Shown here: in pieces, positions 4,279-28,844 of the stretch
Layout of the letters: the number at the start of each line of letters is the position of its first letter
How positions within the stretch are numbered: position 1 is the first letter of the stretch
Assembly: GCA_963663765.2 (NCBI GenBank)
Contig: CAXXUA010000005.1
Span: 832,001-896,000 of the forward strand
From: Candidatus Poribacteria bacterium
GTDB lineage: Bacteria > Poribacteria > WGA-4E > WGA-3G
DNA: 64,000 nt
Direction: 5' to 3'
Notes under the pieces: model-generated
Told to the model about the DNA's origin: nothing
Databases searched by the model: none
What the model saw: the letters and a program-made list of their open reading frames with translations, nothing else
Translations under genes and position numbers: made by a program

Positions 4279-4458
4279 TGTATAACCTGAAATGTTAACA
4301 CACTACATTTGACTATTTTACCATGTTGGGATATAATAATAACCCGTTGTTGAGAAGAACTCAAATAGAAAATAGAAACTGTGCCGAAATTCATGATGAT
4401 GCCGCCGCAAAGTTCAGAATCGCATACGTGGTCAGTATATCTAACATAAGGAAACCTG

Positions 4459-5961: not shown

Positions 5962-5987
5962 TCTCCTAAGAATAGGCGTTGTTTCTG

Positions 5988-7184: not shown

Positions 7185-8472
7185 GGGAACAAGTCATGGG
7201 TTCTTCTGTGAAGTTTGTCTGTATTACAACACTATCTTGTTCCATCTGCAGAACTTGACCTTTTATGACAGAACCGTCTAAATATGTTAATGTCATACCT
7301 TGTTTTATCGATGCCAATTCTTGGTCAGGTTGTATGAGTTGATCAATCTGTTGAAGATTGATGTTTGTGCGAGTACCATCCGTACCGAGAACGTAACTGT
7401 TATCATTTTCGACATATAATTTACCGTGATGAACATCACCATTCATCATGTTGACTCTCGGTTTAGTAAAATCAACTTCTTGGTTATTAAATTCCCCTGC
7501 TTGTTTGTAGACTTTTAACCGTTTGATCGTCAGGTCTTGTCCTCGGTTGTAGATATAGGGACCTGAAATCGCGGTAGTGGGACTAACAGTATCAAGTTTC
7601 AACAGCAAATTACCGTTCAGTTCAAAGATTTTCAACGTACTTGAGTTTTGGTCATAAGCAAGTCGCAAACGGAAGTTACGTCGGTCTGGTTCTATTGACA
7701 TGATAGGTTCAAATAGGGTTCCTTGAACGACAACAAGTTCGTTCACCCAGGTTTCTATTCGCAATGCTTCATATAGATTTTTTCCGAGAGCGAAAACAAA
7801 TTCTGGGGGTCGAGTTGTTGATTCAAATTCAAGGTCAATGACAAACTGTGCTGGCCATTTGAGAGGATAGTATAGGTTCGTTTTACCTATATCTGTTCGT
7901 GCCTGTCCGCCTTGGTCGGCATACCAACCGATCTGATGATTGTTTTTGTTGGATTGAATCTGCTGATTGTCTTTACCGTTTCCAACAGTTTCCCAGAAAG
8001 AGAGTTGCGATCCGTCAAAAACGAGATTTGAATGCTCACGACTTTCAAGTGAGTAAATTGAGGAACGGTTCACACGAAATGTGCCGAAGCTTTTACTCTT
8101 AAAAAGCAATGTGTTCTCGTCTGAACCAATTATGTCCGCAGTCCAACTATCCCCCGTCACCGTGGCAATCCGAAATGTCTCAATGTTTTTTGCAGAGGGT
8201 TTGGAGAAGACGATTGAATCCAACACAGACAAGTCAACATTGAGATCGTCTGTAAAGTGCGATGATTCCCATCGAATTTTGCCGGACTTACTGTCTATCA
8301 GTTTGCCGGTAAGGGTATCCCCATTTTTCCAGCGTAAAAGAGTTTCCTGTGCCAGTATTGTAGTAGGAAGCCACAGAACAGCAAGTGTAACGGCAACGAT
8401 GTATATTTTCTTTAGACATTTTCGCATTGGACTTTCCTTTTCTGTAAAATTCACATCATATTTTGGATTCAC
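7132..8472 (-). CDS. N-terminal part of a large secreted protein of the MoxR/vWA operon
   Basis: Signal peptide (MRKCLKKIYIVAVTLAVLWLPTTILA) and LRWKNGDTLTGKL modules. Removing one A from the A8 run at 7146-7153 fuses it to 5988-7184. Confidence 0.6.
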   Translation of the reverse strand: MNPKYDVNFTEKESPMRKCLKKIYIVAVTLAVLWLPTTILAQETLLRWKNGDTLTGKLIDSKSGKIRWESSHFTDDLNVDLSVLDSIVFSKPSAKNIETFRIATVTGDSWTADIIGSDENTLLFKSKSFGTFRVNRSSIYSLESREHSNLVFDGSQLSFWETVGNGKDNQQIQSNKNNHQIGWYADQGGQARTDIGKTNLYYPLKWPAQFVIDLEFESTTRPPEFVFALGKNLYEALRIETWVNELVVVQGTLFEPIMSIEPDRRNFRLRLAYDQNSSTLKIFELNGNLLLKLDTVSPTTAISGPYIYNRGQDLTIKRLKVYKQAGEFNNQEVDFTKPRVNMMNGDVHHGKLYVENDNSYVLGTDGTRTNINLQQIDQLIQPDQELASIKQGMTLTYLDGSVIKGQVLQMEQDSVVIQTNFTEEPMTCSLDGLSLFQLGSKKTAKR

Positions 8473-11291: not shown

Positions 11292-11413
11292 CGGGGCTTA
11301 CGCACCCAACGGTAGGCGCGCTTTGTAAGCGCGCTGGAAACCGAAAAAATGCTGAAAATTACACCATTTTCGTCATAATTCTTCATCAAATCATGAAAAC
11401 TGCGTAAGTCCTG
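11292..11413 (+). mobile_element. MITE family B (CAGGACTTACGCA...TGCGTAAGTCCTG)
   Basis: 13-bp terminal inverted repeats, degenerate on the left; 5-bp duplication ATAAG on both sides. Confidence 0.85.
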
Positions 11414-11867: not shown

Positions 11868-12060
11868 CAGGACTTACGCACCCAACGGTAGGCGGTGAAT
11901 GCCTAAATGGCATTCATACCCGGGGAATGCCAAAAGGCATTCATACCGTTGATTTCTTGATTTGGTGCTTTGTAAGCGCGCCGGAAACCTAAAAAATGCT
12001 GAAAATTACATCATTTTCGTCTTAATTCTTGATTGGATCATGAAAACTGCGTAAGTCCTG
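11868..12060 (+). mobile_element. MITE family B with nested mini-elements
   Basis: Perfect 13-bp TIRs and 5-bp duplication CATAT. Two nested GAATGCC..GGCATTC modules at 11894-11964. Confidence 0.9.
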
Positions 12061-13156: not shown

Positions 13157-14383
13157 TTATTGTGTTCCTTCCAATACATTGAAATAAGCATCTAAACCTT
13201 GTCGAAATTCTTCGGGCAATACGCGTCCAGCTTTACCTGTTGCTTGTCTTGGTGAACGTTTTTCAATGAAAGCGGTTCCTGTGTCATCACCTGTGCCGAG
13301 GAGTCTGAGTGCTGACATTAATGAAGCAAGTGCTTTTCCTGATGCGCCGCCACCTGGTGTCTCTCCGCCTCCGCCTCCGCCTCCGCTGCTTGGTGTATTC
13401 GGTTCGCGTTGGGTTTGAAGGAGTATTTCAATCACTTCTGAAATCGCAGCGATTGCTTCAGGTCCCGTGTTAGGTTCTGCGAGAATAGATTCTGCTTCCT
13501 CCATTACTTCAGCTGCCATTCTCACTTTCTGGTATTGTCCTTGGATCTTAGGAGTATTCATGGTTGGCAGCAAACTTATTTCTCTTGCGACTTCACGAGT
13601 ATCCTCTGCGATTTCGTATTGTGTATCACTTAACGCTTCGCTCCGTTCTAAATATATGTCGTTGTTGAGAGCGTTTTTCGCTTGCTCGATCTCGCGCGTC
13701 TCTTCACGCAATTGAATTTCACGATTGATGATACGCAACACATCCAAGATGATTTCCGGTGGCAAGTTTGGCACCTCTCCCTGGCCACCCTCTTCTCCAG
13801 GTGGCGGAGGCTCGTCCATTGGATCAACCAATTGTTCTGCCCACCGATCCAGTGTATCTGCCCAATATTCCGCCTCAATGGTAGATTGTCCTATAAAATT
13901 CATACTGATCGCTCGGACAAGATCGCGCATCTGATTTTCTAAGGAAGCGTCTTCCATTTCTGCCAACACACGCAAGTAATTTGCTGAGGGACGTCGATCC
14001 GTATATGCTGCCATATCCTGTATGATAGTCGCAACATCTTTTGATGCAGTTCCTTCAAGGGTTGCTAAACGTTTGAGTTCCCTTTGATTATCCGCTTCCC
14101 TGTTAGGCACACCAAAACTGTCCAGATTATTCAGGTCAGATGCGATGTCTATTTGCTTCCGTGATGCTGCTTTCAGACGTTTCACAAACGTACTGTTTTC
14201 AAAAGCAACAAGTAGTTTCTTCATTTCATCAGATAATTTGTCAAAAGCGTCCAGCAATTCCTCCTGTTCTTCAAATGCTTGCAAAACTAAGTCTGATGCC
14301 TCTGGCGCAGGTGTGTTTTCTTCTTGAGTTTGGTCTTGATTGTTTCTACCGCTACCCTTTAGTGTCGTGTTAGGAATGCCCAT
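13157..14383 (-). CDS. C-terminal coiled-coil part of a DUF4175-like protein
   Basis: Ends AGRVLPEEFRQGLDAYFNVLE. In frame with 14399-16768 across a single TGA. Confidence 0.65.
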   Translation of the reverse strand: MGIPNTTLKGSGRNNQDQTQEENTPAPEASDLVLQAFEEQEELLDAFDKLSDEMKKLLVAFENSTFVKRLKAASRKQIDIASDLNNLDSFGVPNREADNQRELKRLATLEGTASKDVATIIQDMAAYTDRRPSANYLRVLAEMEDASLENQMRDLVRAISMNFIGQSTIEAEYWADTLDRWAEQLVDPMDEPPPPGEEGGQGEVPNLPPEIILDVLRIINREIQLREETREIEQAKNALNNDIYLERSEALSDTQYEIAEDTREVAREISLLPTMNTPKIQGQYQKVRMAAEVMEEAESILAEPNTGPEAIAAISEVIEILLQTQREPNTPSSGGGGGGGETPGGGASGKALASLMSALRLLGTGDDTGTAFIEKRSPRQATGKAGRVLPEEFRQGLDAYFNVLEGTQ

Positions 14384-14398: not shown

Positions 14399-16768
14399 TC
14401 AGGTAGGACCTTCTCGTGGGTCGTCAAGTGGGTTGAATCCTGATTCAACATCTGATAGGCCGGGGGTTGGATTCGCTGGTGAAAATGTTGGCTTACCGCC
14501 TTGGGGGGGTTTACTGCGGTCAGTACTAACTGAATCACCTTGTTTATTAGGATCGTCAGGCATTTCTTCGTCTGCTTTTTCAGCAGGCACCTTGATATCC
14601 GGTCCATACTTCTCAAGTTCGTCATCAGACTTTTTGGTTTCGCTATCTGATGGTGAGGATTGTCCATCTGCTGCTTGGTTTTGCTGTTGTGATGGGTCAG
14701 TAGCTTTACCATTTTGATCAGATGGACTTGATTGTCCATTTTCTGATTGATTTTGTTGCTGTGATGGATCCGTAGGTTTACCGCTCTGTTCAGAAGGATT
14801 TGATTGTCCATCTGCTGCTTGGTTTTGCTGTTGTGATGGGTCAGTCGGTTTACCATTTTGATCAGATGGACTTGATTGTCCTGGTGCTTCAGCTGCTTGT
14901 GCAAGTAAATCAGCAACAGATGGCATTTGCTTTCCAGCGATCTCTTCTAACTGATTTAGCATTTTAGCCCATGATTCAAGTTGTTTACCATCAAACTCAC
15001 TGTTTTTTGATGCTTCCTGAAGCAATTCTTCCCCAGATCCGATGAGGCTATCAAGTTTTGCTGCGTTAGCGCGTTCCAATGCGGCTTGATTCTGGAGTGT
15101 TTTCCGCTGTGCTGGGTCATCAAGTTCCTCTGGAGACATATCGCGAAGTTCGCTATTGGTTTGGTGTAGCATTAGTTCTTTATCGTGAACATCCTTTGCT
15201 GCACCTGTCCAAAGTTGCATCTGCCCGATGAGCCATTTGTAGTGATCTGCAGGTGAAAGTACGTGCATCACTATCTGCGGAGAATAGATGCGTTCTCGAT
15301 TTGGATAATAATCTTCCACGAAAGCACGCAAACGTAGACTCTGGGGTTTCACATTTTCGCGTTCAACGGAGAATGTTGCGGGGACGATAAGTTCGTCAGA
15401 AGTTGGAGAACCTGCGGACACAGTTTTCTCGCCTATTGCTGGATCAGGATTTTGAATGGGGTTCTTGATACCTTCCCATGCTAAACCGATATGTTTGACA
15501 CCGAAGTCATCTCCCGCTTGAATCTCAAATGTGAGTACGTCTGTAGAGAGATAAACTTGGTTATTTTTTAGTTTGGTGATTGCGACTGTCGGTTCAGCAT
15601 CTTCTTGCGCTTCAAACTGCAGTACTTGTGGTTCACTTGCAGCGAGTCCATAGCGGTCACGCCATGTTAAATGCATCTCCGTAGTGGTATCCACCGAAAT
15701 TGCTTCGGTTATTACACGTTCACCATCTACCTTTTGGGGACGGTTATTTAAGGTTGCTTCTGATAATTCACGCGTCGTCGTTGCTTCCAAAGTTGCGGTG
15801 CTACCTTTGACTAAGTTCACGATACCGCCACGGACATCATCTATTCGTGGTTCTTCGTGCTGCAAGTAGTCGGGGAGTTGGACTTTGGCAATAAGTTCTT
15901 TTAATGCAGGACGCAATTTCGGTTCAATCGGGATTGAACGGCGTGCATCTCCAACTCGTAGTTTGATCTCTCCATCCTCAGTTTGCGGCGGTAATTGGAA
16001 TTTGTAAGTTTCTCCATCTCGTTTTGTGGTTATGGGTTCTTGTTTCGCGTAGCGAGCTTCACCTGCTTCAGGTTTCCATGGGGAATCGTCTTTGAGTTGT
16101 GCTTCAACGTCAAATGGTTCTGCATACGCCACAACGCGCAAGTCAGGTTTTCCATCTAACTGCGCAAAAGTAAGTCGATCCACATCTCGCCAGGGTGTCA
16201 TCCAACGTGCAAGCGCATTCCGCGTCGTAGCAGGAATTACAAGTACGCCGATAAGTACCAACACTAACGGTATACCAGCTGCCAATACCCAACGTCTGTG
16301 CTGTGGATTCGGTACAGCTTCAGAAAGGTTGTGTTTTGCGACCTCTTCATCAACTTGTCGCATAGCTGCTGCAACCAGTGCGGGACTTGCGGATTGATCA
16401 GTCCTTTCCGATGCCAGTTCTATGATGCCAAGGACGTGATCACCAAACCGGGGAAACTTGTGCTGTAACAACCGTGCAATTCCTTCAAGTTGTCTATTTT
16501 GCCACACCCATTTGTGGTATTTCATCGGAAGAAAAACCACCATGCCTACCATGCCTATTACCAAGATGAGTGCGCGTAGAAGTGCTGGCGTATCAATCAG
16601 TCGGTCTAAACCAAACACAATGAGATACGAAATTATGAGTCCGAAGAGTGCTGCTAACGTGCCTTCTGCAAGTTTGATTATCCATACACGTTTTCTGTAT
16701 TTTTCTAATGCGTTTTTCATACGCGGGGGTAGATTGACCCCGCTATTTTGTTGGTGTGTTTGGTTCAT
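14399..16768 (-). CDS. DUF4175-like membrane-anchored coiled-coil protein (N-terminal part)
   Basis: Three N-terminal TM segments, Ig-like middle region (AGDDFGVKHIGL) and a Q/S/P-rich repeat. Typical position in MoxR/vWA operons. Confidence 0.7.
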   Translation of the reverse strand: MNQTHQQNSGVNLPPRMKNALEKYRKRVWIIKLAEGTLAALFGLIISYLIVFGLDRLIDTPALLRALILVIGMVGMVVFLPMKYHKWVWQNRQLEGIARLLQHKFPRFGDHVLGIIELASERTDQSASPALVAAAMRQVDEEVAKHNLSEAVPNPQHRRWVLAAGIPLVLVLIGVLVIPATTRNALARWMTPWRDVDRLTFAQLDGKPDLRVVAYAEPFDVEAQLKDDSPWKPEAGEARYAKQEPITTKRDGETYKFQLPPQTEDGEIKLRVGDARRSIPIEPKLRPALKELIAKVQLPDYLQHEEPRIDDVRGGIVNLVKGSTATLEATTTRELSEATLNNRPQKVDGERVITEAISVDTTTEMHLTWRDRYGLAASEPQVLQFEAQEDAEPTVAITKLKNNQVYLSTDVLTFEIQAGDDFGVKHIGLAWEGIKNPIQNPDPAIGEKTVSAGSPTSDELIVPATFSVERENVKPQSLRLRAFVEDYYPNRERIYSPQIVMHVLSPADHYKWLIGQMQLWTGAAKDVHDKELMLHQTNSELRDMSPEELDDPAQRKTLQNQAALERANAAKLDSLIGSGEELLQEASKNSEFDGKQLESWAKMLNQLEEIAGKQMPSVADLLAQAAEAPGQSSPSDQNGKPTDPSQQQNQAADGQSNPSEQSGKPTDPSQQQNQSENGQSSPSDQNGKATDPSQQQNQAADGQSSPSDSETKKSDDELEKYGPDIKVPAEKADEEMPDDPNKQGDSVSTDRSKPPQGGKPTFSPANPTPGLSDVESGFNPLDDPREGPT
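14650..14880 (-). repeat. Intragenic ~72-bp repeat, about 3 copies (QSSPSDQNGKPTDPSQQQNQAADG)
   Basis: Visible in both DNA and protein translation. Confidence 0.85.
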
Positions 16769-16843
16769 TGAAGTTCTCCTTTGGTGTGCCTATTTGTTTT
16801 CTATTTCAATGTAAATTCTGATAATGTTTTATGAATACTTAAA

Positions 16844-16936
16844 CTATATCGTACCTGCCATCTTTCGTGCAACCCAAAATAACGCAAGCAGTAAGATAAT
16901 CAGTCCGCCCGAAAGCGGGTGCGACCAGATACATGT
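16844..16936 (-). repeat. Duplicated 3' end (93 bp) of the vWA gene 19756-21963
   Basis: Matches 19756-19848 with about 6 mismatches; the two copies bound the defence cassette. Confidence 0.9.
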
Positions 16937-16945
16937 TTGATTTGG

Positions 16946-18124
16946 TTAACGTGACAGGAGATACGACTCTGACTTATAATGTGTATCAATTCGGTGTTCC
17001 CTCGGCAGATAAATTGCAACTGGAATATTGAATCCATGTAGATTCTGACACATTAAGGGACCAACATGTTTCCAATCTAACCCACCCAAACCGCAACCGA
17101 GGGCAGGTATTGCAAGCGACTGTATTCCTTCTTTGCGATAATTGTTTTGAATCCATTTAAGACCACCTTCAATATCATCTAAACGTGAGTTGTCTTTCCA
17201 ATGTCGTTTCGTTGCAAAAAGCAGGAACCACTTCACAGAATTAGGAGTAACAAGTGGTGTCCCAAGGTCAGCTAATTCCTCATCTAATGAACTTTCACGT
17301 TTGTAGAGATAAGGTTTTGTGGCTGTGATGCGCTTTGCACGGCAAACATCTTGGTATGCTACATAGACATCGGGAAACTGATATTTGGCACGTGAGGCTA
17401 ATCCTTTACCCATAATTCCTTGTAGATTAACACTAATTGTTAGTGTTTGTAGGTTTGAGAAGAACATATCTCCATCAATCAGTGAAATGTTGTCTCCTAT
17501 TTTTGTTCGGCTGTAAGGTTGAAAAAACATGTCAGGTTCAGAGCTTACGGCAATATTAGCATCTCCAATATTTTTCTGAATAACTTCTCGCACTGAATTG
17601 TTTGCAACATAGATATTTTGAATATATTCAGGTTTGACATGCTTGGGAATCAGACATTCTGCCATAATTTTACGTTTTGATCCATCATCTCTATTCCACC
17701 AATCGTTCCGAATTATAGACCACTGTTTCCTAATGATTTCTAATCCTTTGGAAGGATAATAAAACTGCGTTGCCTCATGCGCTGCATTTCCATCCGTGAT
17801 AAATACTTCTTGTTCATTCAACACTCTTTTATTGATACCGACAACAGCAAGATTTTTGGAGTCTTTTTCATGGACAACACGGTACATCATTGCATTGCGA
17901 GGTTGGAAGTAAAGGTTAGCATAAGACCAAAGTCTCCTTTTATTAGGTGCCATTATTTGACTACGCCGACTGACGATATCTGCATCATAGATAGGGGTTG
18001 TGTGTACTCCTTCTGTTTCAATTTTTTCGTGTGAGAAAACCCCTCGTGCAAGGATAGAAGGGAGATTGTCTAAGTGCGTGATGTAGTAGAGTTCGTGTAT
18101 GTCTAATTTTGGCATAATATTCAC
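16946..18124 (-). CDS. DarT (DUF4433 DNA ADP-ribosyltransferase) - DarG macrodomain fusion
   Basis: DarT motifs LYYITHLDNLPSIL..G, YANLYFQPRNAMMY, FITDGNAA and KRKIMAECLI. Macrodomain motifs GDMF, SVNLQGIMGKGLA, FATKRHW and SLAIPALGCGLGGLDW. Confidence 0.9.
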   Translation of the reverse strand: MNIMPKLDIHELYYITHLDNLPSILARGVFSHEKIETEGVHTTPIYDADIVSRRSQIMAPNKRRLWSYANLYFQPRNAMMYRVVHEKDSKNLAVVGINKRVLNEQEVFITDGNAAHEATQFYYPSKGLEIIRKQWSIIRNDWWNRDDGSKRKIMAECLIPKHVKPEYIQNIYVANNSVREVIQKNIGDANIAVSSEPDMFFQPYSRTKIGDNISLIDGDMFFSNLQTLTISVNLQGIMGKGLASRAKYQFPDVYVAYQDVCRAKRITATKPYLYKRESSLDEELADLGTPLVTPNSVKWFLLFATKRHWKDNSRLDDIEGGLKWIQNNYRKEGIQSLAIPALGCGLGGLDWKHVGPLMCQNLHGFNIPVAIYLPREHRIDTHYKSESYLLSR

Positions 18125-18140
18125 CTAATACCAGAAACAC

Positions 18141-19267
18141 TTACTCTATTTCCTTAGGATTATTATACAATTCCCAGTAACCTGAGCCTTTCTCAACATT
18201 TTTTGCAGATCCTTGTTTTGCAAGAGCTTGCAATGCGCTATTGAAAAGCTGATCTATAGCCGATTTTGCATCCAGTCCACCCCGAACTTGATGAATTTTA
18301 GTTACTTCATCAGAACTTACGCAAAAACGGTAGGCGTGCTTTGTAAGCGCGCTGGAAACCTATAAAAATACTGATTAATTACATCATTTTCAACATAATT
18401 CTTGATTAAATCAAGAAAACTGCGTAAGTCCTGTTCATTTATAATATCTTGTTTTTTAGTTTTCCCTTTATCTCCGAATAATTCTATAATAAGAGGTCTT
18501 GCCATCTTACCTGTAAGATACTTGCCTGCGTAATCGTACTTGTAACTTGACTGTTTATCAGAAATTACATCCATATTTGGGGTAGGTGTTGGTTCCACTG
18601 GTGGTGCATATAAGTTTTGCAGAAATGTTATCACGTGTTCTGGGGTAGGACGCTTGCCACATAGTTCTGATGTCTTTTCAACAATGATTTTCAGTAGAAG
18701 TTCATTCTGTTCTTTTACTAAAAGGTTCCATGCTTCTGGTACCCCTTTTTGAATCTGTCTTTCATAAACCACGTTCTGATAGTCTTCAGCAATGACTTTC
18801 ACCATCTTTCCTGTCTTTACACTTTCATAATTCAGGTACCTGTTTAGGCGTTCGGCGATTTCATCGCTTTTTCCACCGATAAGATCCAATTCGTGTACCA
18901 GCCGGTCTTTGTAATTCCCGGTACCTGCGGGGTAAAAAAAACGCCATTTCTGCCCATCAGTAAGAACAACAATCGGAACCCCTTCAATAAAAGCATATTC
19001 AAACAGCTGCTTTTCTGCTCCTTGAATTTTTCCCACCTGCTTAACTTCAATAAAAATGATGGGCTTTTCTGGTGGATGACAAAGTGCAAAGTCAACTCTC
19101 CTTCCCTCAACTGAGTATTCAGAGATGATAATTTGAGGACTGAACATTGGCCATTGCAATACCTGAAGCAGTCTATTCACAATATGATTAGAAACAGCAG
19201 ACTCATCTTTATATGCGTTTTTTTCTAAATTATTACGAATATCATCAATATGTTCTATAAGTGTCAT
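18141..19267 (-). pseudogene. HsdR-N-like PD-(D/E)xK endonuclease with C-terminal winged helix, interrupted by a MITE
   Basis: EYSVEGRRVDFAL..IFIEVK..QLFEYA..VLTDG..WRF. Removing 18311-18433 plus one TSD restores NEVTKIHQVRGGLDAKSAIDQLFNSALQALAKQGSAKNVEKGSGYWELYNNPKEIE*. Confidence 0.8.
18311..18433 (+). mobile_element. MITE family B inside the endonuclease gene
   Basis: CAGAACTTACGCA...TGCGTAAGTCCTG with 5-bp duplication TTCAT. Confidence 0.9.
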
Positions 19268-19414
19268 TCGTATTCAATGCCTCTAATAAAAGTAAAGGTT
19301 TTGAGCATTTAATGGTACGGCATGAGTGTAAGATTACCTTCAATAACGCGACACATTCAATTGGTAAAATGATAGCATATTGTAGGAAATATTGCCATGA
19401 AATAACAAACCGAC

Positions 19415-19697
19415 CAGGGATATTCAGTTTTCAATATTTTTGATAGTATTTTGCTATGTCGTTAATTTTATGTGTTGCCATCTTGTCCGTGTCTTTAGTC
19501 CCGTAGGGACAATATGTTTATAGAAAAATGGTATATAACACTCTTGAGTTCCGTAGGAACGGCATAGAAGAATAAACATATCGTCCCTGCGGGACTAAAG
19601 AGCGATGTTCATGTTTCAATAATCTAAAATTGATGTATTGGGTATTAACTTTCAGTAAATCTCAATAACAGAAAACTTTTAAAACTGAATAACCCTA
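19415..19697 (+). mobile_element. MITE family A (shortened)
   Basis: CAGGGATATTCAGTTTT...AAAACTGAATAACCCTA, flanked by CAAACCGAC on both sides (19406-19414, 19698-19706). Confidence 0.9.
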
Positions 19698-19755
19698 CAA
19701 ACCGACCAAGAACACACATTGCAAGACTACAACGATTAATGTACTGCGTTTGGCA

Positions 19756-21963
19756 TCATATCGTACCTGCCATCTTGCGTGCAACCCAAAATAACGCAAG
19801 CAGTAAGATAATCAGTCCGCCCCAAAGCGGGTGTGACCAGATACGTGTGCGTTTATCAATCGGTTCAGGTTCTGGGATCGCTGCCAGATGATCTAACAAC
19901 GTTCCTACTTCATCAACTTTTACTAACTTTCCTTTAGTGATTTGTGATATTTCGTCAAGGACATCAAAACGTGCCAATCGTCCTTGCTGCTCTCTGTTCA
20001 ATCCTTGTACTGAAAGTTCTGTTTGCACAGCAGCACCTGTTTCACTGCTTGTCGCGACAAGACGGTAATTTCCAGATTCTTTCGGTTCAAATGTTCCAAC
20101 AAACAATCCTAAAGCATCCTCTATCCCTGGTTGTAACCGAATTGTCTCAGTTTTTCCAGTAGGAGAAATCGCTTGGACAGTGACTGTACCTCTATCCAAA
20201 GGACCACCGACATTGTCCATCACGTTAGCATTCAATGTTAGGATATCATCCACATGGGGTCGATCAGGTGAGTAGAATAGTCGTATGGCTTCTCCTTGTG
20301 CCATCTGTCTGCGATATGCCATCCAACGTGCGACTTGACTCCAGAAACGGTAGTGATACTTGTCTTCTACACCGTGTCGCCACCGCCATGCACTGTCCGT
20401 TCCCATAAACAACACTTTACCTGTGCCGTAAGTTTTTGTAACGATAAGCGGTACTCTCCCAGAAATTGTGGAAGCTTGGTCGTGCACTGCCAATATCTCT
20501 GTGCCTACTTTTGCACGTTCAATACCCGCGTACCAGTAAAACCCTGGCAGTGTGCGCCACACATCGCTATTGTCAAGGTCAGTATCACCGAGACGTGTTA
20601 ACAAACTACGTTGTCCGGGTTCAGTGAGAGTGAAATATCCTTGAACACTTGAACCGAATCCATTCGGTTTTGCGGCGTCTATAACAACTGGATAAAGATC
20701 CGCAAGTGGACCGGTCATCAATGAACTTTGTCCCCCAGTGCGACCCGGAATGAAGACGATACCCGAGGCTTGTGCACTAACGAGTTGTCGTAAGTCTTGT
20801 GCTTGTTCAGCAGTGAGTTGTTCGGGCGATATACCCACATCTCCAAGAAACACAACGTCAAATTCGCTGAGTTCTCTTGCATCGGGGAAATGTTTGATGT
20901 AACTGCGACCTCCTCCGACCTGCGGTAATTTCGGATGATATAATAGACAAGTTAATTCAACACCTGCATCCCGTTCTAAAGCATTGCGTAAGTATCGGTA
21001 CTCCCACCGTGGGTAGGATTCAATGACAAGAACTTTCAACTGCTCTTTACGAATAGATATAGGTGCGGAAAGCTCATTATTTTCCGGGATCAACTCTCTT
21101 ATATCTGGTGTAACACGCAGATTGAGGGTATACTCTCCTGTTTCCTGCGGTGTCCACGCGATATTGTCTTGGGCTTGTCCCATAGCAGGCACAGTGATAA
21201 CTTTGGTAACCGTTGATTTATCATCAATACTTAATGTAAGGTTGACATCTCTGTCTTGTCCAATAGTGTTTCGGACGACAAATGGGATACGCAATTGCTT
21301 TTTTGTTACGCCATACGTTGGTGCGTCTATACTGACTAACTCAATATCGGGTAAGGGAACTTCACTGCCAACACTAACCGTGAAAACCGGCACCCCTTGC
21401 ATGAGAAACCGTCTTGCAGCCTTCTCAGGTGAGTCACCGATATTCCAATCCCCATCAGATAGAAGGACTACGCCTCGAAGGTTAGAATAGTTATCTAAAA
21501 TGTGCGACAGTCCAGCGTTTATGTCTGTGGCTTCTTCTGCGGGGTCTATCAATGAAGAAAATGACTCAAATACTACGGTGAGATCAGTATCTTCTTCTGT
21601 TTTCCAAACTTCCTCGGACAGCAGTGGTTGTATTATTTCTTCGCGACTTCTGCGTTTGGCAGCGGTGTCTTTTTCGTCAATTATATCTTGCGTTTTCATA
21701 CTGTTTGATTTATCCCATAGCACAGCAAGTGTTGAACGGAGTTCAGGAGGTTGGGATTCAATCCATTCGGGTTGATTTAGTGTTGCAACCACGAGACAAA
21801 CGAGTGCAAACCGAAGAAATTCAAGCAATGCGATACGTTTTCGGTAGCCGCTGCGGTGCCATGCAAATACGCACAGCGCAGCGGTTATGATGACAACGAT
21901 CAATCCTAAAATGAGGATGGAGTTGTTTGTGAAGAATTCTATGTGTCCTTGTGGGTCTTGCAT
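19756..21963 (-). CDS. Membrane vWA + glutamine-amidotransferase-like domain protein
   Basis: VLWDKSNSM (MIDAS), VVLLSDGDWN, KVLVIESYPRWEYRYLRNAL, YGTGKVLFMGTDSAWRWR; TM segments at both ends. Confidence 0.85.
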   Translation of the reverse strand: MQDPQGHIEFFTNNSILILGLIVVIITAALCVFAWHRSGYRKRIALLEFLRFALVCLVVATLNQPEWIESQPPELRSTLAVLWDKSNSMKTQDIIDEKDTAAKRRSREEIIQPLLSEEVWKTEEDTDLTVVFESFSSLIDPAEEATDINAGLSHILDNYSNLRGVVLLSDGDWNIGDSPEKAARRFLMQGVPVFTVSVGSEVPLPDIELVSIDAPTYGVTKKQLRIPFVVRNTIGQDRDVNLTLSIDDKSTVTKVITVPAMGQAQDNIAWTPQETGEYTLNLRVTPDIRELIPENNELSAPISIRKEQLKVLVIESYPRWEYRYLRNALERDAGVELTCLLYHPKLPQVGGGRSYIKHFPDARELSEFDVVFLGDVGISPEQLTAEQAQDLRQLVSAQASGIVFIPGRTGGQSSLMTGPLADLYPVVIDAAKPNGFGSSVQGYFTLTEPGQRSLLTRLGDTDLDNSDVWRTLPGFYWYAGIERAKVGTEILAVHDQASTISGRVPLIVTKTYGTGKVLFMGTDSAWRWRHGVEDKYHYRFWSQVARWMAYRRQMAQGEAIRLFYSPDRPHVDDILTLNANVMDNVGGPLDRGTVTVQAISPTGKTETIRLQPGIEDALGLFVGTFEPKESGNYRLVATSSETGAAVQTELSVQGLNREQQGRLARFDVLDEISQITKGKLVKVDEVGTLLDHLAAIPEPEPIDKRTRIWSHPLWGGLIILLLALFWVARKMAGTI

Positions 21964-21987: not shown

Positions 21988-24900
21988 TTAAAACATTCTT
22001 TCTTCGCGGATTTTTGAATGTTCAATTTGCTCTTTGAGAAAAGGTACAAATTCGTTAATCCAACGATTGACTCTATCATCATTATCGTTGTTTTGAATGT
22101 CAACTAATTTTTGAACTTTCTCTTCGTAGTGTAGACTAGCAGGTCCCCAGAATGCTTCTGATGAATAATTTGATATCAATGTATTTCTAACATCTTCTCT
22201 ATCTCCATATCTTACAAGAAGATCGCGTGCCAGCGAATCATTCCATTCTTCAATCAATAGAGTTTTTGGGACAAATTCACTTGCAAGATACCACGCGCGG
22301 TTTTCCACGTCTTTGTTAATCCATTCCCAGATATATTCGCGTGGGATTAAGGTTAATGCTCCTTTTTCTTTATCTTCTTCTTTATCCGATAGATCTGCTT
22401 CTCTAAGCCAATTTCCTATGGATATGGTTCTTGAAAAATTGTCATATTTCCCCAAGTATTTACTAACGTAATTCCATACTTCAGCGGGATGTTGTTTAGT
22501 TGCCTCTGTGAGGAATGTGCAACTCTGTGAGAAAGAATCAAACATTGTTTTATCGTTTCCAAAGGAAACTAGCATGAGTTTTGCTAATTCTAAAGCTTTC
22601 TGTGGATTGAGGGATAGAAATGTTTTTGCAATTTCTGTCCAATAGAAATCTGTCATTGTACTATAATGATAATTGTCGGAATCATTATATAATTCTGAGT
22701 GTGAAAGGAGGCAATATGTAGTTTCATCCGGTAAAGTAGGTTCTGGTTTTTGAGAAATGTAGTAATTGTAGAACAACTTTAATGCGATTTCTACGGCTGA
22801 TCTGTCTGATTTTTTCAATAGAAATTCTATCCAAGTCTTAAACACATTTTCAGATAAACTGGTTATTGCATTTCGGAATATGAAAATTTCAAAATCATAG
22901 ATATTAATAATACCGCTTTTTGCAAGGTTAAGAATGCGAAGTCCAGCTTGATCAGTAAGACCTGAATAATGTGTGAGTGATGGAACGATTGTATTCAGTG
23001 TAGTATCCTTACGGAGATTGTCAAGTTGTGCTTCCCATTGTTTCATGTCTTTATCAAATATTGCATGGAAATAACCACCCAGAAAATAAGTGCTCGCATT
23101 GTCTACCGCGCTTCGTTGAGCATCAAGAAGCGTTGGTAAAAGTGATAGTTCCTCATCTTGCTGTCCGAGTTCATTCCCAAATCTATTTCCATTCTTTGCG
23201 TCTGTAGTAACAAGCCATGATAATTCTGATTTTAAAAGGTCCGGATTATCAATAGATTGCTTAGCAAGTGTTTCAAGATACAGTTGTGTAGGATTAACTC
23301 CCTCCTCGTGTTCAAGCAGTTCGTCTTCAAGGAGATCCATCCCAACATAACGTTGCATTTGCGAATGATAGTCGGAACCAATCAATCCATCTCTTATTTC
23401 CTCAAAACGTTGACGAACTACAGAAGGTAGTCCCTTATTGTCAATATAAGAATCATCATGAAACAAGATACGACTAATAGTTTCAATGATTTGTTTTCCA
23501 CTTGCATATTTCTTTTCGGTTATTGTTTCAACCGTATTCACAATCATATCACCTAATGCAGGAATTCTTCCAAGCGATCCTGCACGCCCAAGAAGAATTC
23601 CTACTGCTTCTTTACGTTCTCCTTCAGGTAAATGTTCTAATTGTTCGGATAAAAGTTGCCATATTTGACTGTACGCATCCCACCATTCACCGTAAGTCTT
23701 AGGTTCCCAAAGTTTAGGTATTCCGCGTAATCCTTGATATTCTGCTCCGGAAGTCCGTGAGAAATGATCGGATATTAAACCTTTATTACAAGCTTTAATC
23801 GCAAGGGTTTGACGTTCTTTTGAACCAGACTCAAATGCTTCCTTTAAAATTGGCAAACGTTCTATTGGGGATGCTTCTGTGGGTGCTACTCCACCTGGTC
23901 CTAATGAGAAAAGATCAGCAAAAACTCCGCTTGCATTGTTTGATATTCTTTCATTCTCCGCTTCGCCGAGTGCAAGGAGTAATCTTGCTGCATCAGGAAA
24001 CAACTTTTGCCATATAGCAATCTTTTCAAGTGCCCAAATCACCAATCTCCGTCCATCAGTGAATTTCAAAAGGGTTTCTTTATCCCAAGTACCGATTGTT
24101 CGCATTAAACACTTTAAAGCAGATTCTGGATCTGCCTCACTCAAAGCGAGAAAAAAACGACTACCCATCCTTGTCTTCAAATATTTATTATCCTGAAATG
24201 GCCCATTTGGTCCAAGCAGTTTCTTGACAACATTTAATGCCGCTTCTGACTCAGCTGCATAGACAAACATATCATAGAAATATTCTACCAATTCTGGTTC
24301 TAAATCTTGAGTAAAGGTTTCAAGATTGAAGGTCAGGCGGCGAATTTCCCACCACTGCGTCCATAGTTTAATGTGAAGTGCTTTTGGAGTAATATAAAGT
24401 GTAAACTCACCTTGAAGGATCTTTCGATCTCTCAGCTGATGGATTATTGAGTGAAACTTATCCAAAGTGATCCGATTGTCAGCCTCTATAACTTTTTTGG
24501 CAATTGCTTCAGCCTCTGAAGCAACAGTCCTTTCAAATCCGAATCGCTTAAAAAGTGATAGATATTGAAGTACCAATCTCCGTTGTTCTGTCTGTTCTCT
24601 GTTTGGCTCATCTCCAGCAACAATATAGCGTTCCCAGATATCAACTGTTCCGGGAGGTTTAAGCAAATCTTCTGGATGATTTACTAAGTTCTCACCGATG
24701 ACGTGTGCAACTCTTGGTGAACCACTACAGAGTTCAGCCCATCTATTAGCATCAGCATTGGATATATTAGTATAACTCTGAACAATACTACAAATCTGTT
24801 CATTATCCAGCGGTGGGGCATCATAGTAGTTAATATCTCCAGATTTTTCCTCATAGTCATTATAGATAGTGATCAATTTTATCTTTGAACCACGATGTTT

Positions 24901-25806
24901 AAGTTTATTCCAGAAATATGATCTATTGTCGGGATTACACTCATCTATTATTAGCACAACTGAGAAAGAGTTATCGTCTCGGAGAATTTCATTCAGTAAA
25001 ACACTATCTAAGAATTGAGAGGCGGTACAGTAAACAACAAGTGGAGATAAATCATCAACCTTCGTTGCTTCTAAGACAAGTTTAGTTTTTCCGATGCCAG
25101 GTTCACCCAACACCCGCAGGTGAACTGTGTCGTTGTTTCGTCTTAATTCATCTTGGATTTCTAATATCTGATCGTTCTGTGATTCTCCTGAGACAAATGA
25201 GAGCTGCATAGTTGCATCTTCAGACCAACTCTGATGGGTTTGGAAAAATCCTCTATCATTTCCATTGACCCACAATGCTAATGATGGAAACATCTCAAGG
25301 AAGGTTATAAGAGTATTCTGACTCCACACTTCAACCTTCGGAGTTTGATAACCACATTGCTCTAAATACCCTTTAATTTTATTCAAAATTTCTCTATATT
25401 CGCTATCAACAAGATCGATTCCGGTGCAGACTAATACGTAGGTTCCTCCCGATTCATCTTCAAGACATGCTCGAATGCCATCTTTAAGATTTTGTTCATT
25501 AGCCTCATTTTCGCTGCCGAAGAGTTCATCCTTAATATTTGGCTTTGTTTTCCCAGACTTTATCTGGTAACTGGTTTTTCCTTGCTGAATTAATCCGCTT
25601 CCTATTGGCATCTGAGTATCACTAACAGATGCATCGATACCACCGTCTCGGACATTAACACGGTGTGAGATATTAATCTTGCTTAGTTCTATTCCGAGTT
25701 TGCGCGCTTCTGCCCAAAGCAGCTTCCGGCAAAATTCGACAGATGTTTTTTGATCAAGTTGGTTTAGATGATGATTGTTTACGGTAAAAATAGTATCAAT
25801 ATTCAT
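21988..25806 (-). CDS. Mrr-like nuclease - STAND NTPase - helical repeat protein (Avs-like candidate)
   Basis: N-terminal RDGGIDA...YQIKS, Walker A GEPGIGKT, Walker B VLIIDEC, LCSGSPRVA (GxP), and a long alpha-helical C-terminus. Confidence 0.7.
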   Translation of the reverse strand: MNIDTIFTVNNHHLNQLDQKTSVEFCRKLLWAEARKLGIELSKINISHRVNVRDGGIDASVSDTQMPIGSGLIQQGKTSYQIKSGKTKPNIKDELFGSENEANEQNLKDGIRACLEDESGGTYVLVCTGIDLVDSEYREILNKIKGYLEQCGYQTPKVEVWSQNTLITFLEMFPSLALWVNGNDRGFFQTHQSWSEDATMQLSFVSGESQNDQILEIQDELRRNNDTVHLRVLGEPGIGKTKLVLEATKVDDLSPLVVYCTASQFLDSVLLNEILRDDNSFSVVLIIDECNPDNRSYFWNKLKHRGSKIKLITIYNDYEEKSGDINYYDAPPLDNEQICSIVQSYTNISNADANRWAELCSGSPRVAHVIGENLVNHPEDLLKPPGTVDIWERYIVAGDEPNREQTEQRRLVLQYLSLFKRFGFERTVASEAEAIAKKVIEADNRITLDKFHSIIHQLRDRKILQGEFTLYITPKALHIKLWTQWWEIRRLTFNLETFTQDLEPELVEYFYDMFVYAAESEAALNVVKKLLGPNGPFQDNKYLKTRMGSRFFLALSEADPESALKCLMRTIGTWDKETLLKFTDGRRLVIWALEKIAIWQKLFPDAARLLLALGEAENERISNNASGVFADLFSLGPGGVAPTEASPIERLPILKEAFESGSKERQTLAIKACNKGLISDHFSRTSGAEYQGLRGIPKLWEPKTYGEWWDAYSQIWQLLSEQLEHLPEGERKEAVGILLGRAGSLGRIPALGDMIVNTVETITEKKYASGKQIIETISRILFHDDSYIDNKGLPSVVRQRFEEIRDGLIGSDYHSQMQRYVGMDLLEDELLEHEEGVNPTQLYLETLAKQSIDNPDLLKSELSWLVTTDAKNGNRFGNELGQQDEELSLLPTLLDAQRSAVDNASTYFLGGYFHAIFDKDMKQWEAQLDNLRKDTTLNTIVPSLTHYSGLTDQAGLRILNLAKSGIINIYDFEIFIFRNAITSLSENVFKTWIEFLLKKSDRSAVEIALKLFYNYYISQKPEPTLPDETTYCLLSHSELYNDSDNYHYSTMTDFYWTEIAKTFLSLNPQKALELAKLMLVSFGNDKTMFDSFSQSCTFLTEATKQHPAEVWNYVSKYLGKYDNFSRTISIGNWLREADLSDKEEDKEKGALTLIPREYIWEWINKDVENRAWYLASEFVPKTLLIEEWNDSLARDLLVRYGDREDVRNTLISNYSSEAFWGPASLHYEEKVQKLVDIQNNDNDDRVNRWINEFVPFLKEQIEHSKIREERMF

Positions 25807-25832: not shown

Positions 25833-27854
25833 TCAATCAGCCTCACTGCCAGCAGGGGCAAATTCAACTGCAGGATTACTCTCAACTCGCTTACTTGGCA
25901 GACTTAACACCGCTTCCACAATGAGTGCTACCAACATTGCAATAAGAAAAATACGCCAGAGTTCATTCGCTAACGAGGAGGTATCTCCAACCTCAACATC
26001 TATACGTCGGTAGGACAAATCACCAAAGAGGGCATCAACCTTCTCAACGGGTGCTGCGTTAGCAATATCTTCCGCATGACTTCGATTTACTGCCACCCAA
26101 TACGCTTCATCTTGATAGACACCAGCGTGCAATCCACGTTGTGAAAGCGATGCAGCATTTTCTTTGGGGGCAACCACTTCCCATTGTTCTCGGTCTGCAA
26201 GTGCATCAGAAGCAGCATCGCGTTGGGAGGCATCTGTCAATGCACGACATCCTTCCGCTAAAGCACGTTGCAACATCACATAAAACACCACCCCATCACG
26301 TTCAAAAGACGAAAACTGAGCGGTTGGAAGGGTGCTACAAAAATACACTGCCCCAGAGTCAGTATTGACACGGGTTAACAGCGGTGAATCGTCACCAAAC
26401 CGTGCTAATGTTGTTCCTATGCTATCGTGAGAACGATATTGGTAGGTGCGTAGGTCGTTTAACGGCAAAGGATCACCACTGTCTGTATGTGATAGTAAGT
26501 CTGTATCACTACGCCACCATGAAACTTCAGAACTTTGCTCATCCTCAGGTTTTTGCCAGTCACTCCAACGTGTTTCAAACATCTGTCCACCAGCATTCTG
26601 ATGTGGCGGAAAGAAGATAACAACACGGCCACTGTTGACAAAACTCTGTATCTGTTCAGCAACCAATTCATTGGGTAATGCTGCCTGCCAAATCAATAAG
26701 CCTGAGTTTTCCCAATCAATCTCACCGATGCGTTTCGTTTGATACACCTCTGCCTGATGTTGAAGTCGTGCGTCTGGTGGAATAGTAAGTGCTCGCCGAA
26801 AGGTCTCCCCTGTTCTGGCATCATCAGTGACAATTACTGTTTTTCGCACTGGTGGTTCAGAAAAGACAAAGAAAAACCGGTTGTCCAATGGGTTTGCATC
26901 CCCCGGTAACCCGACTGAACCCCATCCAGATGTTAACGAACCATCAATAGGAATACTGTGTCCCTGTATAGATCCACCAAGCAGGTCAAGTTCTATTTCC
27001 ACGACTGATCGAACATTATTTACTTCAAACTCAATCGGTACTTTTCGCGTTGCAGTATTATTACCATCACTGCGAACCATGACATCAAGTATCAATTCCC
27101 CCTCATTTGCTCTGTGCCAACGCTGCACGTTTTCCACCCTAACCGATAAGTTGTTAGAAGATGGTGCTGAGTATGCAAGTAGGAAATGATGTACATTGTC
27201 TAATTGGGCAAATTCCTCACGTATGGCATCCCAACGTCCACTGCCCACAGTCCAATCGTTTTCGTGCAGGTCGGAACAGAGCCATATTTCAGCGCGTCCA
27301 GAATTGTTTGCCTTTAGATAAGTTAATGCTGACTCATACATGCCCGGTATATTGGCACTCGTGGCACTTGCTTCGGTCATAGGAAGGCTTAGTAATGCTT
27401 GAGGAGAGTCTACTTCTTGTAGTTCTCCGGTCGCACTATCAATTAGGATCAACTGTGTCCCATAATCCCCTTGTTCCAGTAAGTCTACCAACCTTTTAAG
27501 TGCCGTGGATCTTTTTGACTCTCCTGCCTGTAGGTCTTGTGTCTCCATACTTGCAGATCGGTCAAGGAGCACCATCGTAATATCAGGTTTTGCAAATCCT
27601 ATACTCCCTAACCATCCACCAGAAAGGGGTCTACTGATGGCAAAAATAAGTGCTGCAATGGCAAGGACACGCATCAACAAAATGAGTATATGACGTATGC
27701 GTGCCATACCCTTGCTCATGCGTTTCGCGGTCATGAGAAACATCATTGCTGCCCACGCCACAGTACGGTGTCGTTGTTGATTGATAAGATGAATGATAAC
27801 TGGTAGCAACACTAAAGGAAGTGCTATTAATGTAAGTGGTTGTAAGAAATTCAT
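25833..27854 (-). CDS. BatA-N / vWA domain membrane protein
   Basis: MNFLQP..LPVIIHLINQ...WAAMMFL (BatA N-terminus), VLLDRSASM, LCSDL, and a C-terminal TM after ELWR. Confidence 0.9.
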   Translation of the reverse strand: MNFLQPLTLIALPLVLLPVIIHLINQQRHRTVAWAAMMFLMTAKRMSKGMARIRHILILLMRVLAIAALIFAISRPLSGGWLGSIGFAKPDITMVLLDRSASMETQDLQAGESKRSTALKRLVDLLEQGDYGTQLILIDSATGELQEVDSPQALLSLPMTEASATSANIPGMYESALTYLKANNSGRAEIWLCSDLHENDWTVGSGRWDAIREEFAQLDNVHHFLLAYSAPSSNNLSVRVENVQRWHRANEGELILDVMVRSDGNNTATRKVPIEFEVNNVRSVVEIELDLLGGSIQGHSIPIDGSLTSGWGSVGLPGDANPLDNRFFFVFSEPPVRKTVIVTDDARTGETFRRALTIPPDARLQHQAEVYQTKRIGEIDWENSGLLIWQAALPNELVAEQIQSFVNSGRVVIFFPPHQNAGGQMFETRWSDWQKPEDEQSSEVSWWRSDTDLLSHTDSGDPLPLNDLRTYQYRSHDSIGTTLARFGDDSPLLTRVNTDSGAVYFCSTLPTAQFSSFERDGVVFYVMLQRALAEGCRALTDASQRDAASDALADREQWEVVAPKENAASLSQRGLHAGVYQDEAYWVAVNRSHAEDIANAAPVEKVDALFGDLSYRRIDVEVGDTSSLANELWRIFLIAMLVALIVEAVLSLPSKRVESNPAVEFAPAGSEAD

Positions 27855-27938: not shown

Positions 27939-28844
27939 TTACGCTCGTTTCTTGGGTGTTCGTCCTAAAAGAAATTTTGCTAAAACATCCCCATAGTCAT
28001 CATTGATACAGATGCGATGATAATCAATTTCGGTGTCTTGGATTACCTCATTCATGCTTTCAAGGTAAACATCAAGTGCACGTCGGTACTGCTCACCGAT
28101 AATGATAGGATCCGCTAAGATAGCTTCACCACCCTCCATGTCAACAAAACGTACCGGACGATCAAAATCAAAATCAAGTTCGTTTTGCTCCATAAGATGG
28201 AACACTGCCACATCATGCTTACGGAAACGCAAATGCTCAAAACAGTTTCTGACGACTTCAGGATCAATGAACAGATCAGATATGATAATGATGAGAGCTC
28301 TTTGCGGGACACGTTCAGCAGCTTCGTGAAGAGCTTCTGCGAACCCTGTTTCTCCGGACGGTTCTACCGTTCCGAGTTCATCAAGGACAGCACTGAGATG
28401 TGTGGCACTTCGTTTTGGTGGGATTTCTTTGTGGAATTGTGTCCCCGCGCAGTAGAGTCCAACAGCATCGCCTTGAAGCGCAGCAATATAGGCTAAAGTG
28501 CCACCAATACGGCGTGCATAATCAAGTTTGCTCATACCGTTGTACGCATACCCCATGGAACCGCTGGTATCAACCATTAAGCACATACGAAGGTTTGTAT
28601 CTGCTTCAAACTCTTTGATATAGTAGCGGTCATTACGGGCATAAGCACGCCAGTCCAGACGGCGAGTATCATCACCCGGTACATATTTGCGGTACTCAGC
28701 AAACTCAAGACTTGAACCCCGAATCGGACTGCGATGTTTGCCAGATACATTCCCTATCATAGGTAGACGGGCATGCAGTTGCAACGTAGACAGACGTTCA
28801 AGCACTTTCTGGTCGAGATAATCCCGTTTGAGTTGTAGTGCCAT
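27939..28844 (-). CDS. DUF58 (vWA-like) protein
   Basis: GKHRS..GSSLEFAEYRKYVPGDD.RRLDWR.YAR, VDTSGSM and IISDL. Confidence 0.95.
   Translation of the reverse strand: MALQLKRDYLDQKVLERLSTLQLHARLPMIGNVSGKHRSPIRGSSLEFAEYRKYVPGDDTRRLDWRAYARNDRYYIKEFEADTNLRMCLMVDTSGSMGYAYNGMSKLDYARRIGGTLAYIAALQGDAVGLYCAGTQFHKEIPPKRSATHLSAVLDELGTVEPSGETGFAEALHEAAERVPQRALIIIISDLFIDPEVVRNCFEHLRFRKHDVAVFHLMEQNELDFDFDRPVRFVDMEGGEAILADPIIIGEQYRRALDVYLESMNEVIQDTEIDYHRICINDDYGDVLAKFLLGRTPKKRA

Follow-up and report, generated by a model that had tools for sequence, protein, structure and literature searches.

The DNA analysed here (the window) is a stretch of 64,000 nucleotides (nt) from a Candidatus Poribacteria bacterium, and its subject is a minus-strand gene that encodes a DarT ADP-ribosyltransferase domain and a DarG/TARG1-type macrodomain in one chain. 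A first-pass annotation of the window had described a single polypeptide combining DarT with a DarG-type macrodomain, and this is borne out by Pfam, PADLOC and NCBIfam matches lying in one open frame. The features of the gene are as follows.

16946..18115, minus: coding sequence of the fused DarT-macrodomain protein, 389 amino acids (aa) from ATG, stop codon included
16946..18124, minus: mechanical open reading frame (ORF) of the fused gene, 392 aa from the GTG at 18124
18121..18126, minus: putative Shine-Dalgarno-like AGGTGA, read from the sequence, 5 nt upstream of the ATG at 18115
17522..18088, minus: DarT ADP-ribosyltransferase domain, residues 13-201 (392-aa numbering)
17657..17659, minus: catalytic Glu codon of the MAEC motif, E153 in the 389-aa numbering and E156 in the 392-aa numbering
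17489..17521, minus: short interdomain linker, directly after the near-invariant FF-x-P segment
16982..17488, minus: DarG/TARG1-type macrodomain, residues 213-381 (392-aa numbering), from PADLOC, NCBIfam and structure matches
17207..17209, minus: macrodomain catalytic Lys codon of the FATK motif, K303 (389-aa numbering)

The frame had been described as a continuous 392-aa ORF; it is unbroken as claimed, but its start is probably the ATG at 18115. The fused protein is most likely 389 aa long, judging from the sequence, because the GTG of the longer ORF sits within the Shine-Dalgarno-like AGGTGA, 5 nt before this ATG, and because the homologues are 389 aa long. Residue numbers follow the 389-aa scheme unless stated, and the addition of 3 converts them to the 392-aa scheme. 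A promoter and terminator scan of 16600-19900 found 8 promoter-like sites compared with 10.4 expected.

The DarT domain is matched over the complete Pfam profile (PF14487, positions 1-201 of 201) by residues 13-201, with an E value of 2.3e-48 and 165 bits against a cut-off of 22.5, and the PADLOC DarT model matches residues 9-201 (E 7e-41). The second domain is matched by Pfam Macro at residues 304-355 (E 5e-6) and by the PADLOC DarG model at residues 213-381 (E 1e-43), all in the 392-aa numbering. The DarG models are matched only in their first half, at positions 2-152 of 329 for PADLOC and 1-155 of 338 for NCBIfam, and the chain stops 11 residues past the macrodomain, indicating that the C-terminal half of DarG is absent, in agreement with the earlier remark that the DarG toxin-binding domain is missing. 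No NADAR match was reported for the fused protein in the Pfam, PADLOC and NCBIfam scans, and the second domain is a macrodomain. There is no stop codon between DarT and the macrodomain in the window frame.

The MAEC Glu and the FATK Lys had been reported as retained; both are present in the window DNA and both are kept across the family. In a wide alignment of 151 full-length fusions of 340-620 aa (the query, the best 120 homologues and 30 two-domain representatives), the catalytic Glu is found in 148 sequences, the others having Lys once, Ala once and a gap once, and the macrodomain Lys is found in 150, with Thr once. R51 is kept in 146 of the 151, and the FF-x-P segment at the end of DarT belongs to the best-conserved parts of the protein (F197 149/151, F198 149/151, P200 137/151). 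A narrow alignment of 29 sequences that are 49-86% identical to the window protein shows DarT residues H14, R51, Y69, F70 and R73 as invariant, together with F197, F198, Q199 and P200, and E153 in 28 of the 29. The macrodomain invariants in the same alignment are G233, G236-K237-G238, T302-K303 and A338-L-G-C-(x2)-G344. The high retention of the Glu, the Lys and R51 argues that the writer and eraser activities are both under selection, rather than the protein being a decaying toxin with a leftover antitoxin. Two natural 389-aa fusions that are 81-83% identical to that of the window have Lys (P0014) or Ala (P0016) in place of the catalytic Glu and keep the macrodomain Lys. These two proteins may be eraser-only derivatives.

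A search of PDB sequences with the window protein retrieved chain 7omu_AAA, of 406 residues, as a single continuous alignment (E 2.6e-131) that pairs query residues 9-390 with chain residues 23-404. The entry, PDB 7OMU, is titled "Thermosipho africanus DarTG in complex with ADP-ribose" and was released on 2021-06-23; it is presumably part of the work of Schuller et al., Nature 2021. The MAEC Glu aligns with an Ala of the crystallised chains 7OMU (MAAC) and 7OMV, an Ala that the Thermus DarT entries share, and the FATK Lys is paired with the Lys of a TK motif in the DarG macrodomains of Thermus aquaticus and Mycobacterium tuberculosis. A template-free model of the window protein, made from the 29-sequence alignment, has a predicted local distance difference test score (pLDDT) of 85.5 and a predicted TM score (pTM) of 0.77, and its top Foldseek match is 7OMU (E 4e-47, TM 0.88/0.90, root mean square deviation 2.6 Å over 384 columns, 51% identity). 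With a whole-chain TM of 0.88, the predicted placement of the two domains agrees with that in 7OMU. The AlphaFold2 weights predate 7OMU, and the agreement is presumably not memorised. Lesser Foldseek matches of the DarT part are Thermus DarT (TMt 0.78-0.80), M. tuberculosis DarT from the DarTG complex (0.70) and Escherichia coli C7 DarT1 (0.66). The macrodomain fold is matched by T. aquaticus and M. tuberculosis DarG (TMt 0.87-0.89) and by human TARG1 (0.82-0.85), and the DarG macrodomain entries 5m3i and 5m31 were retrieved in the PDB sequence search at E ~1e-17.

The rarity of the fusion that the first-pass annotation had implied does not hold, as the gene belongs to a large family with a solved member, 7OMU. 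The protein search gave 2572 matches at E <= 1e-3 among 3847 candidates of 215-686 aa, a total that takes in canonical DarG proteins aligning to the macrodomain alone. The best 120 homologues are colinear with the query, 346-397 aa long (~389 aa), with 87-99% query coverage and 64-100% identity; Pfam labels 108 of them as DarT plus Macro and 12 as DarT alone. An exhaustive search of representatives at 50% identity gave 7595 matches at E <= 1e-3, 3502 at <= 1e-10 and 98 at <= 1e-30. When the best 150 representatives were sorted with phmmer, both domains were near-complete in 30, 24 contained parts of both (many of these look like fragments), 42 contained DarT only and 54 the macrodomain only.

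A genome scan yielded 27 related loci, with an uninterrupted fusion in 25. Candidatus Poribacteria account for 17 of the 27, and the others include a Nitrososphaerota archaeon, Zixiibacteriota, Planctomycetota and Candidatus Ruthturnera, the family thus spanning several bacterial phyla and one archaeon. Locus L027 has merely a 40-residue remnant of the fusion. Locus L026 (5977-7167, from a Bdellovibrio metagenome-assembled genome, MAG) has a split form in which a 218-aa DarT is followed, 3 nt on, by a macrodomain-only protein of 176 aa; the latter is without the DarG C-terminal domain and adjoins a TOTE-type primase-helicase.

A DarT-domain tree of 57 fused and stand-alone domains, built with a quick method, leaves most of its inner branches open (28 of 54) and joins two long branches; fused and stand-alone DarT are interspersed in it, and its starred branches force at least 3 changes. 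This tree took representatives with at least 85% of the domain matched, and some of its stand-alone rows are possibly truncated gene calls. The fusion is matched by 115 plasmid records, all below 60% identity. Among the plasmid matches listed, those covering both domains are all annotated as two genes (one encodes 201 aa + 341 aa), and no record is annotated with a single fused gene. Of 203 matching phage records, just one, an unannotated 7.5-kb contig, covers at least 80% of the query; the remaining phage records listed align solely to the macrodomain part. The DarT-DarG fusion is thus an architecture that is already known and common, and the window gene is an ordinary new member. No discussion of natural DarT-DarG fusions was found in the open-access papers searched.

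The fused protein is most likely DarTG2-like rather than DarTG1-like, as judged from sequence and model, because its eraser is a DarG-type macrodomain and because its DarT domain resembles the DarT proteins of Thermus and M. tuberculosis more than it does DarT1. The sequence matches of the DarT domain follow this order (Thermus E 3e-5, M. tuberculosis E 5e-4, E. coli C7 DarT1 E 0.06), as do the fold scores, with ~20% identity to the solved DarT2 proteins. DarT1 is partnered by a NADAR domain, which takes ADP-ribose off guanine, as described in excerpts of PMC11543638 and PMC11125620. Canonical DarT ADP-ribosylates thymidine in single-stranded DNA (ssDNA) at TNTC, and its Glu mutant is non-toxic, according to the excerpted text of PMC5179494. 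Thymidine, as in DarTG2, would be the best guess for the target base of the fused protein.

Immediately upstream of the fused gene lies a second minus-strand gene, whose parts in the window are as follows.

18440..19267, minus: N-terminal 276 codons of the nuclease, PD-(D/E)xK, HSDR_N-like, with D...ExK kept (orthologue residues 1-276)
18306..18439: insertion breaking the nuclease gene, 134 nt, frame -3 to -2, holding a ~120-nt dispersed repeat
18150..18305, minus: out-of-frame remnant of the nuclease C-terminal winged helix (orthologue residues 279-330)

This gene had been named a restriction endonuclease with a winged helix-turn-helix domain, a description that agrees with its HSDR_N match (E 4.6e-7), its D...ExK motif and a winged-helix-like C terminus indicated by weak fold matches. 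It had also been called broken, as indeed it is in the window, through the 134-nt insertion and a change of frame; the displaced remnant ends 35 nt ahead of the ATG of the fusion. In L001, L003 and L008 an intact orthologue of 329-332 aa precedes the fusion by 23-56 nt on the same strand. D59, E74 and K76 are invariant in an alignment of 28 nuclease sequences and make up the D...ExK motif. In a model of the L003 nuclease (pLDDT 86.4) the first part resembles the nuclease domains of HsdR, DrdV and BpuSI and the last 80 residues resemble winged helices (Fur, Pex, Z-alpha), all of these fold matches being weak (best E 7e-4). Some sources name its relatives 'type I restriction endonuclease' or 'predicted type IV restriction endonuclease'.

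The copy at 18316-18433 that interrupts the nuclease gene belongs to a dispersed repeat family of ~100-120 nt, similar to miniature inverted-repeat transposable elements (MITE) or repetitive extragenic palindromic (REP) elements, with copies 85-95% identical; the others lie at 11297-11413, 11965-12060, 29974-30067, 35814-35870 and 57248-57357. A second dispersed repeat family fills 19268-19755, between the VWA and nuclease genes, with further copies at 481-909, 3765-4278, 46638-46716, 50540-50946 and 62038-62076. It has 30-nt palindromic arms at 19492-19521 and 19572-19601 that are 93% complementary.

The nuclease had been put forward as a functional partner of the fusion, and a refutation was to be seen if it did not co-occur with fused homologues. 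On this count the idea of restriction coupling largely fails, as only 3 of the 27 related loci have the nuclease; what stands is a sub-lineage cassette comprising the window, L001, L003 and L008, the loci for which nuclease-fusion adjacency is shown. The partner claim itself is not supported, in view of the same count and of the window, where the fusion is intact though the nuclease is disrupted. The nuclease is a widespread independent module, since its family has 952 matches of its own with variable C termini and a paralogue elsewhere on the contig of the window. Among its 12 closest relatives (>=66% identity), 7 apparently share a contig with a fused homologue, a figure that reflects a size match and not adjacency. 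The pair thus travels together within one sub-lineage, and the nuclease is an occasional neighbour and not a partner needed by the fusion.

The genes of the window from 12182 to 41500 all lie on the minus strand in the ORF set used, and the fused gene is co-oriented inside a MoxR-DUF58-BatA-VWA operon. The neighbouring genes are given below.

28847-29866, minus: MoxR-type AAA ATPase, first of the local series in transcription order
27939-28844, minus: DUF58 gene
25833-27854, minus: BatA gene
21988-25806, minus: gene for a 1272-aa PD-Lambda-4_A-like protein (PADLOC E 1.6e-31, residues 6-704)
19756-21963, minus: VWA/CARDB gene
18317-19267, minus: nuclease gene
14399-16768, minus: gene for a 789-aa protein
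13157-14383, minus: gene for a 408-aa protein
16846..16936: 91-nt direct repeat, distal copy, a non-coding duplicate of the VWA/CARDB 3' end just downstream of the fusion
19758..19848: 91-nt direct repeat, proximal copy, within the 3' end of the VWA/CARDB gene (19756..21963, minus)

The slot between the VWA and 789-aa orthologues is occupied by the fusion in 13 loci (L001, L002, L003, L005, L006, L009 to L011, L013 to L016 and L023). The identities of fusion and VWA protein to those of the window are near-equal in 12 of these 13, as in L001 (86/87%), L006 (83/85%), L014 (76/76%) and L016 (75/77%). In L023 the flanks are 96% and 90% identical to those of the window and the fusion is 79% identical, which suggests that the allele was replaced by recombination at the slot in the window and/or in L023. 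The two 91-nt repeats (family D2) are 96% identical, are spaced 2912 nt apart and bracket a 2.9-kb nuclease-fusion cassette; among the 27 related loci, a second copy downstream of the fusion is found only in L023. The GC content is 0.355-0.415 in sliding windows starting at 16900-19000, compared with 0.44-0.49 in the flanking genes. In the Poribacteria loci L004, L007 and L012 the fusion sits elsewhere, beside DNA methylase genes or an IS1595 transposase.

The 1272-aa PD-Lambda-4_A-like gene, which lies between batA and the VWA gene, has a GC content of 0.34-0.41 and has orthologues in 7 of the 27 related loci; its protein has no Pfam match. Its site is a second insertion hotspot in the MoxR-DUF58-BatA operon. 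The MoxR/Bat-type operon also takes up other defence genes, and the fixed slot of the fusion within it provides a convenient natural allele series for comparison. Three tandem 72-nt units (81-98% identical) at 14658-14881 on the minus strand form a Ser/Pro/Gln-rich repeat segment of the 789-aa protein. A TnpB/OrfB_IS605-type gene is located near the operon at 30961-32067 on the minus strand (OrfB_IS605 E 9e-29, Cas12f1-like TNB E 1e-19).

The surroundings of the related loci were surveyed by scanning 47 ORFs against Pfam, with the following neighbours.

L004, L007: N6/N4 methylases, that of L007 fused to DUF559
L005: GmrSD
L009: T5orf172
L017: HNH-WYL protein and a separate DarT
L018: AAA_35 ATPase and a WYL protein
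L019: UvrB (uvrB)
L021: DinG-like exonuclease-helicase and a sigma-54 activator
L022: separate DarT
L024: aspS, nadA, yebC
L026: TOTE primase-helicase

This mix leans towards defence islands, not everywhere. In L024 (a Candidatus Ruthturnera MAG, 3237-7908) the fusion is flanked by aspS-nadA on one side and yebC on the other and has no defence genes in its vicinity; this is the single case in which it adjoins the NAD-biosynthesis gene nadA. A separate DarT of 209-217 aa with its His and Glu kept is found immediately upstream of the fusion in L017 (5232-5885), where it is preceded by the HNH-WYL protein, and in L022 (43-672). These two cassettes hold two writers and one eraser.

Since the neighbours differ between loci and the nuclease is present in so few of them, the fused gene is a stand-alone unit, the nuclease being accessory in one sub-lineage. 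Canonical DarG neutralises DarT in two ways, hydrolysing the mark and binding the toxin with a C-terminal domain (excerpts of PMC7003065 and PMC8385414), and this domain binds DarT and can neutralise it alone (PMC7003065, same excerpt). The fusions keep both active sites without the DarG C-terminal domain, and therefore the control of the toxin must differ from canonical sequestration. It had been argued that a tethered 1:1 writer-eraser needs a switch other than selective antitoxin loss, a point that we consider reasonable.

In the mechanism that we propose, the DarT domain would use NAD+ to write ADP-ribose on a base of ssDNA, most likely thymidine, and the tethered DarG/TARG1-type macrodomain would erase the mark written by it. 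In the resting cell the eraser would be held in a fixed arrangement relative to the writer, keeping net DNA modification low, and the covalent tether with its fixed domain packing may stand in for the C-terminal sequestration domain. The module would serve to defend the cell from phages and other incoming DNA, or would be an element that stabilises itself. Because the fused toxin and antitoxin cannot part, activation would have to depend on substrate load or on impairment of the macrodomain. The trigger could be a flood of single-stranded target DNA in phage replication or, by analogy with CapRel, a factor that blocks or displaces the macrodomain.

Taken as a whole, this reading, a one-protein DarTG2-like writer and eraser of ADP-ribose on ssDNA that is self-standing, probably serves defence and has a trigger proposed by reasoning, is in our estimate about as likely to be right as wrong. 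A role in defence stands at roughly even odds, with a physiological role as the main rival. Counted in favour of defence are the PD-Lambda-4_A-like gene beside the slot, the defence-type neighbours in other loci, the lower-GC cassette with its 91-nt flanking repeats, the divergence of the window and L023 alleles, and the patchy spread over phyla including one archaeon. Several points weigh against the reading as a whole. The trigger is purely conjectural and drawn by analogy, and no activity, toxicity or phage assay of a natural fusion was found in the open literature. The fused protein misses the NCBIfam equivalog cut-offs (toxin_DarT 107.1 compared with 150, antitoxin_DarG 135.3 compared with 250), so from these scores its base specificity cannot be assumed. 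Non-defence neighbours are found in L024, L019 and L021, and the tracking of VWA identity by fusion identity looks like long vertical inheritance in the operon, which would fit a housekeeping role equally well.

Such a role is the core of the main rival, in which the fusion would cycle ADP-ribose on host ssDNA and thereby tune replication or transcription, with the fusion guaranteeing co-production of writer and eraser. In Mycobacterium, replication is reversibly inhibited by DarT/DarG, OriC is ADP-ribosylated and transcription is affected, according to an excerpt of Butler et al. 2025 (PMC12170906). The single conserved Poribacteria slot in 13 loci, where divergence tracks the flanks and the gene is co-oriented in the MoxR-DUF58-BatA-VWA operon, would suit this explanation, as would the housekeeping or DNA-repair neighbours in L024, L019 and L021. 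It is opposed by the patchy spread over distant phyla and one archaeon, a cassette GC below that of the flanks, the apparent replacement of the allele between close relatives, the flanking repeats and the frequency of defence genes as neighbours, and we regard it as possible but not probable. An alternative in which the fusion is mainly an antitoxin or eraser, with a weak or regulatory DarT, countering a separate DarT or a phage ADP-ribosyltransferase, would account for the separate DarT genes upstream of the fusion in L017 and L022, for P0014 and P0016, which lack the Glu and keep the Lys, and for the stand-alone DarG-like macrodomains carried by phages. The Glu is nevertheless kept almost throughout the family, the two domains are equally conserved, and a second DarT lies beside the fusion in only 2 of the 27 loci, with none by the fusion in the window (Pfam, 40 window ORFs), which makes this explanation unlikely.

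The first-pass annotation had also raised a two-gene restriction system in which ADP-ribose marks set on DNA by the fusion would be read or spared by the upstream PD-(D/E)xK and winged-helix nuclease. This idea draws on the same-strand position of the nuclease directly upstream of the fusion in L001, L003 and L008, on the contigs apparently shared by 7 of its 12 closest relatives with a fused homologue, and on the frequent location of DarTG beside restriction-modification genes reported in the part of a review cited here (PMC8385414). However, the nuclease is found in few of the loci, is broken in the window while the fusion is intact and belongs to a widespread, independent family, and a built-in eraser speaks against stable marks, leaving the proposal very unlikely. 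For the sub-lineage of the window, L001, L003 and L008, a related scheme would have ADP-ribosylation replacing the methylation of restriction-modification, with the nuclease aimed at or held off by the mark and the window copy recently disabled; we give this highly doubtful scheme little credence. Finally, an adjacent darT and short darG could have been merged by an error of sequencing or assembly, and split relatives do exist (218 aa + 176 aa in L026, 201 aa + 341 aa on plasmids). A stop or frameshift between the domains, named beforehand as a possible refutation, was looked for and none was found: the frame is uninterrupted in 25 of the 27 independent loci, the best 120 homologues are matched in length, and the crystallised 7OMU is a single chain spanning both domains, by which such an artefact is practically ruled out.

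Among known systems, the closest to the window protein is T. africanus DarTG (7OMU), which has the same single chain with an N-terminal DarT and a C-terminal DarG-type macrodomain and is likewise without the DarG C-terminal domain. The window protein differs in coming from Candidatus Poribacteria and is 51% identical, and the crystal chain has Ala in place of the catalytic Glu. With the canonical DarTG2 systems of Thermus aquaticus, M. tuberculosis and enteropathogenic E. coli (EPEC), the window protein shares the His, Arg and Glu positions of the DarT fold and the Lys and glycine-rich loops of the macrodomain, and reversible ADP-ribosylation of thymidine in ssDNA would be expected from this likeness. 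Unlike these systems it is encoded by one gene, has no DarG C-terminal domain and scores below the NCBIfam equivalog cut-offs. DarTG1 is related through the common DarT superfamily (8baq, TMt 0.66), but its eraser is a NADAR domain and its sequence match is marginal (E 0.06). Human TARG1 (C6orf130/OARD1) has the same macrodomain subtype (E ~3e-5; TMt 0.82-0.85), whereas it is a eukaryotic hydrolase that stands alone and carries no transferase. No account of how fused DarTG proteins are controlled was found in the open literature searched, which makes their control a fair experimental question. CapRel, a fused toxin-antitoxin that is switched on by a phage protein (excerpt of PMC9712102), is comparable by analogy alone, in that toxin and antitoxin form one chain and activation cannot use antitoxin decay. 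There is no relation in sequence or fold between CapRel and the window protein, and the antitoxin part of CapRel, in contrast to the macrodomain, is not an enzyme reversing the product of the toxin.

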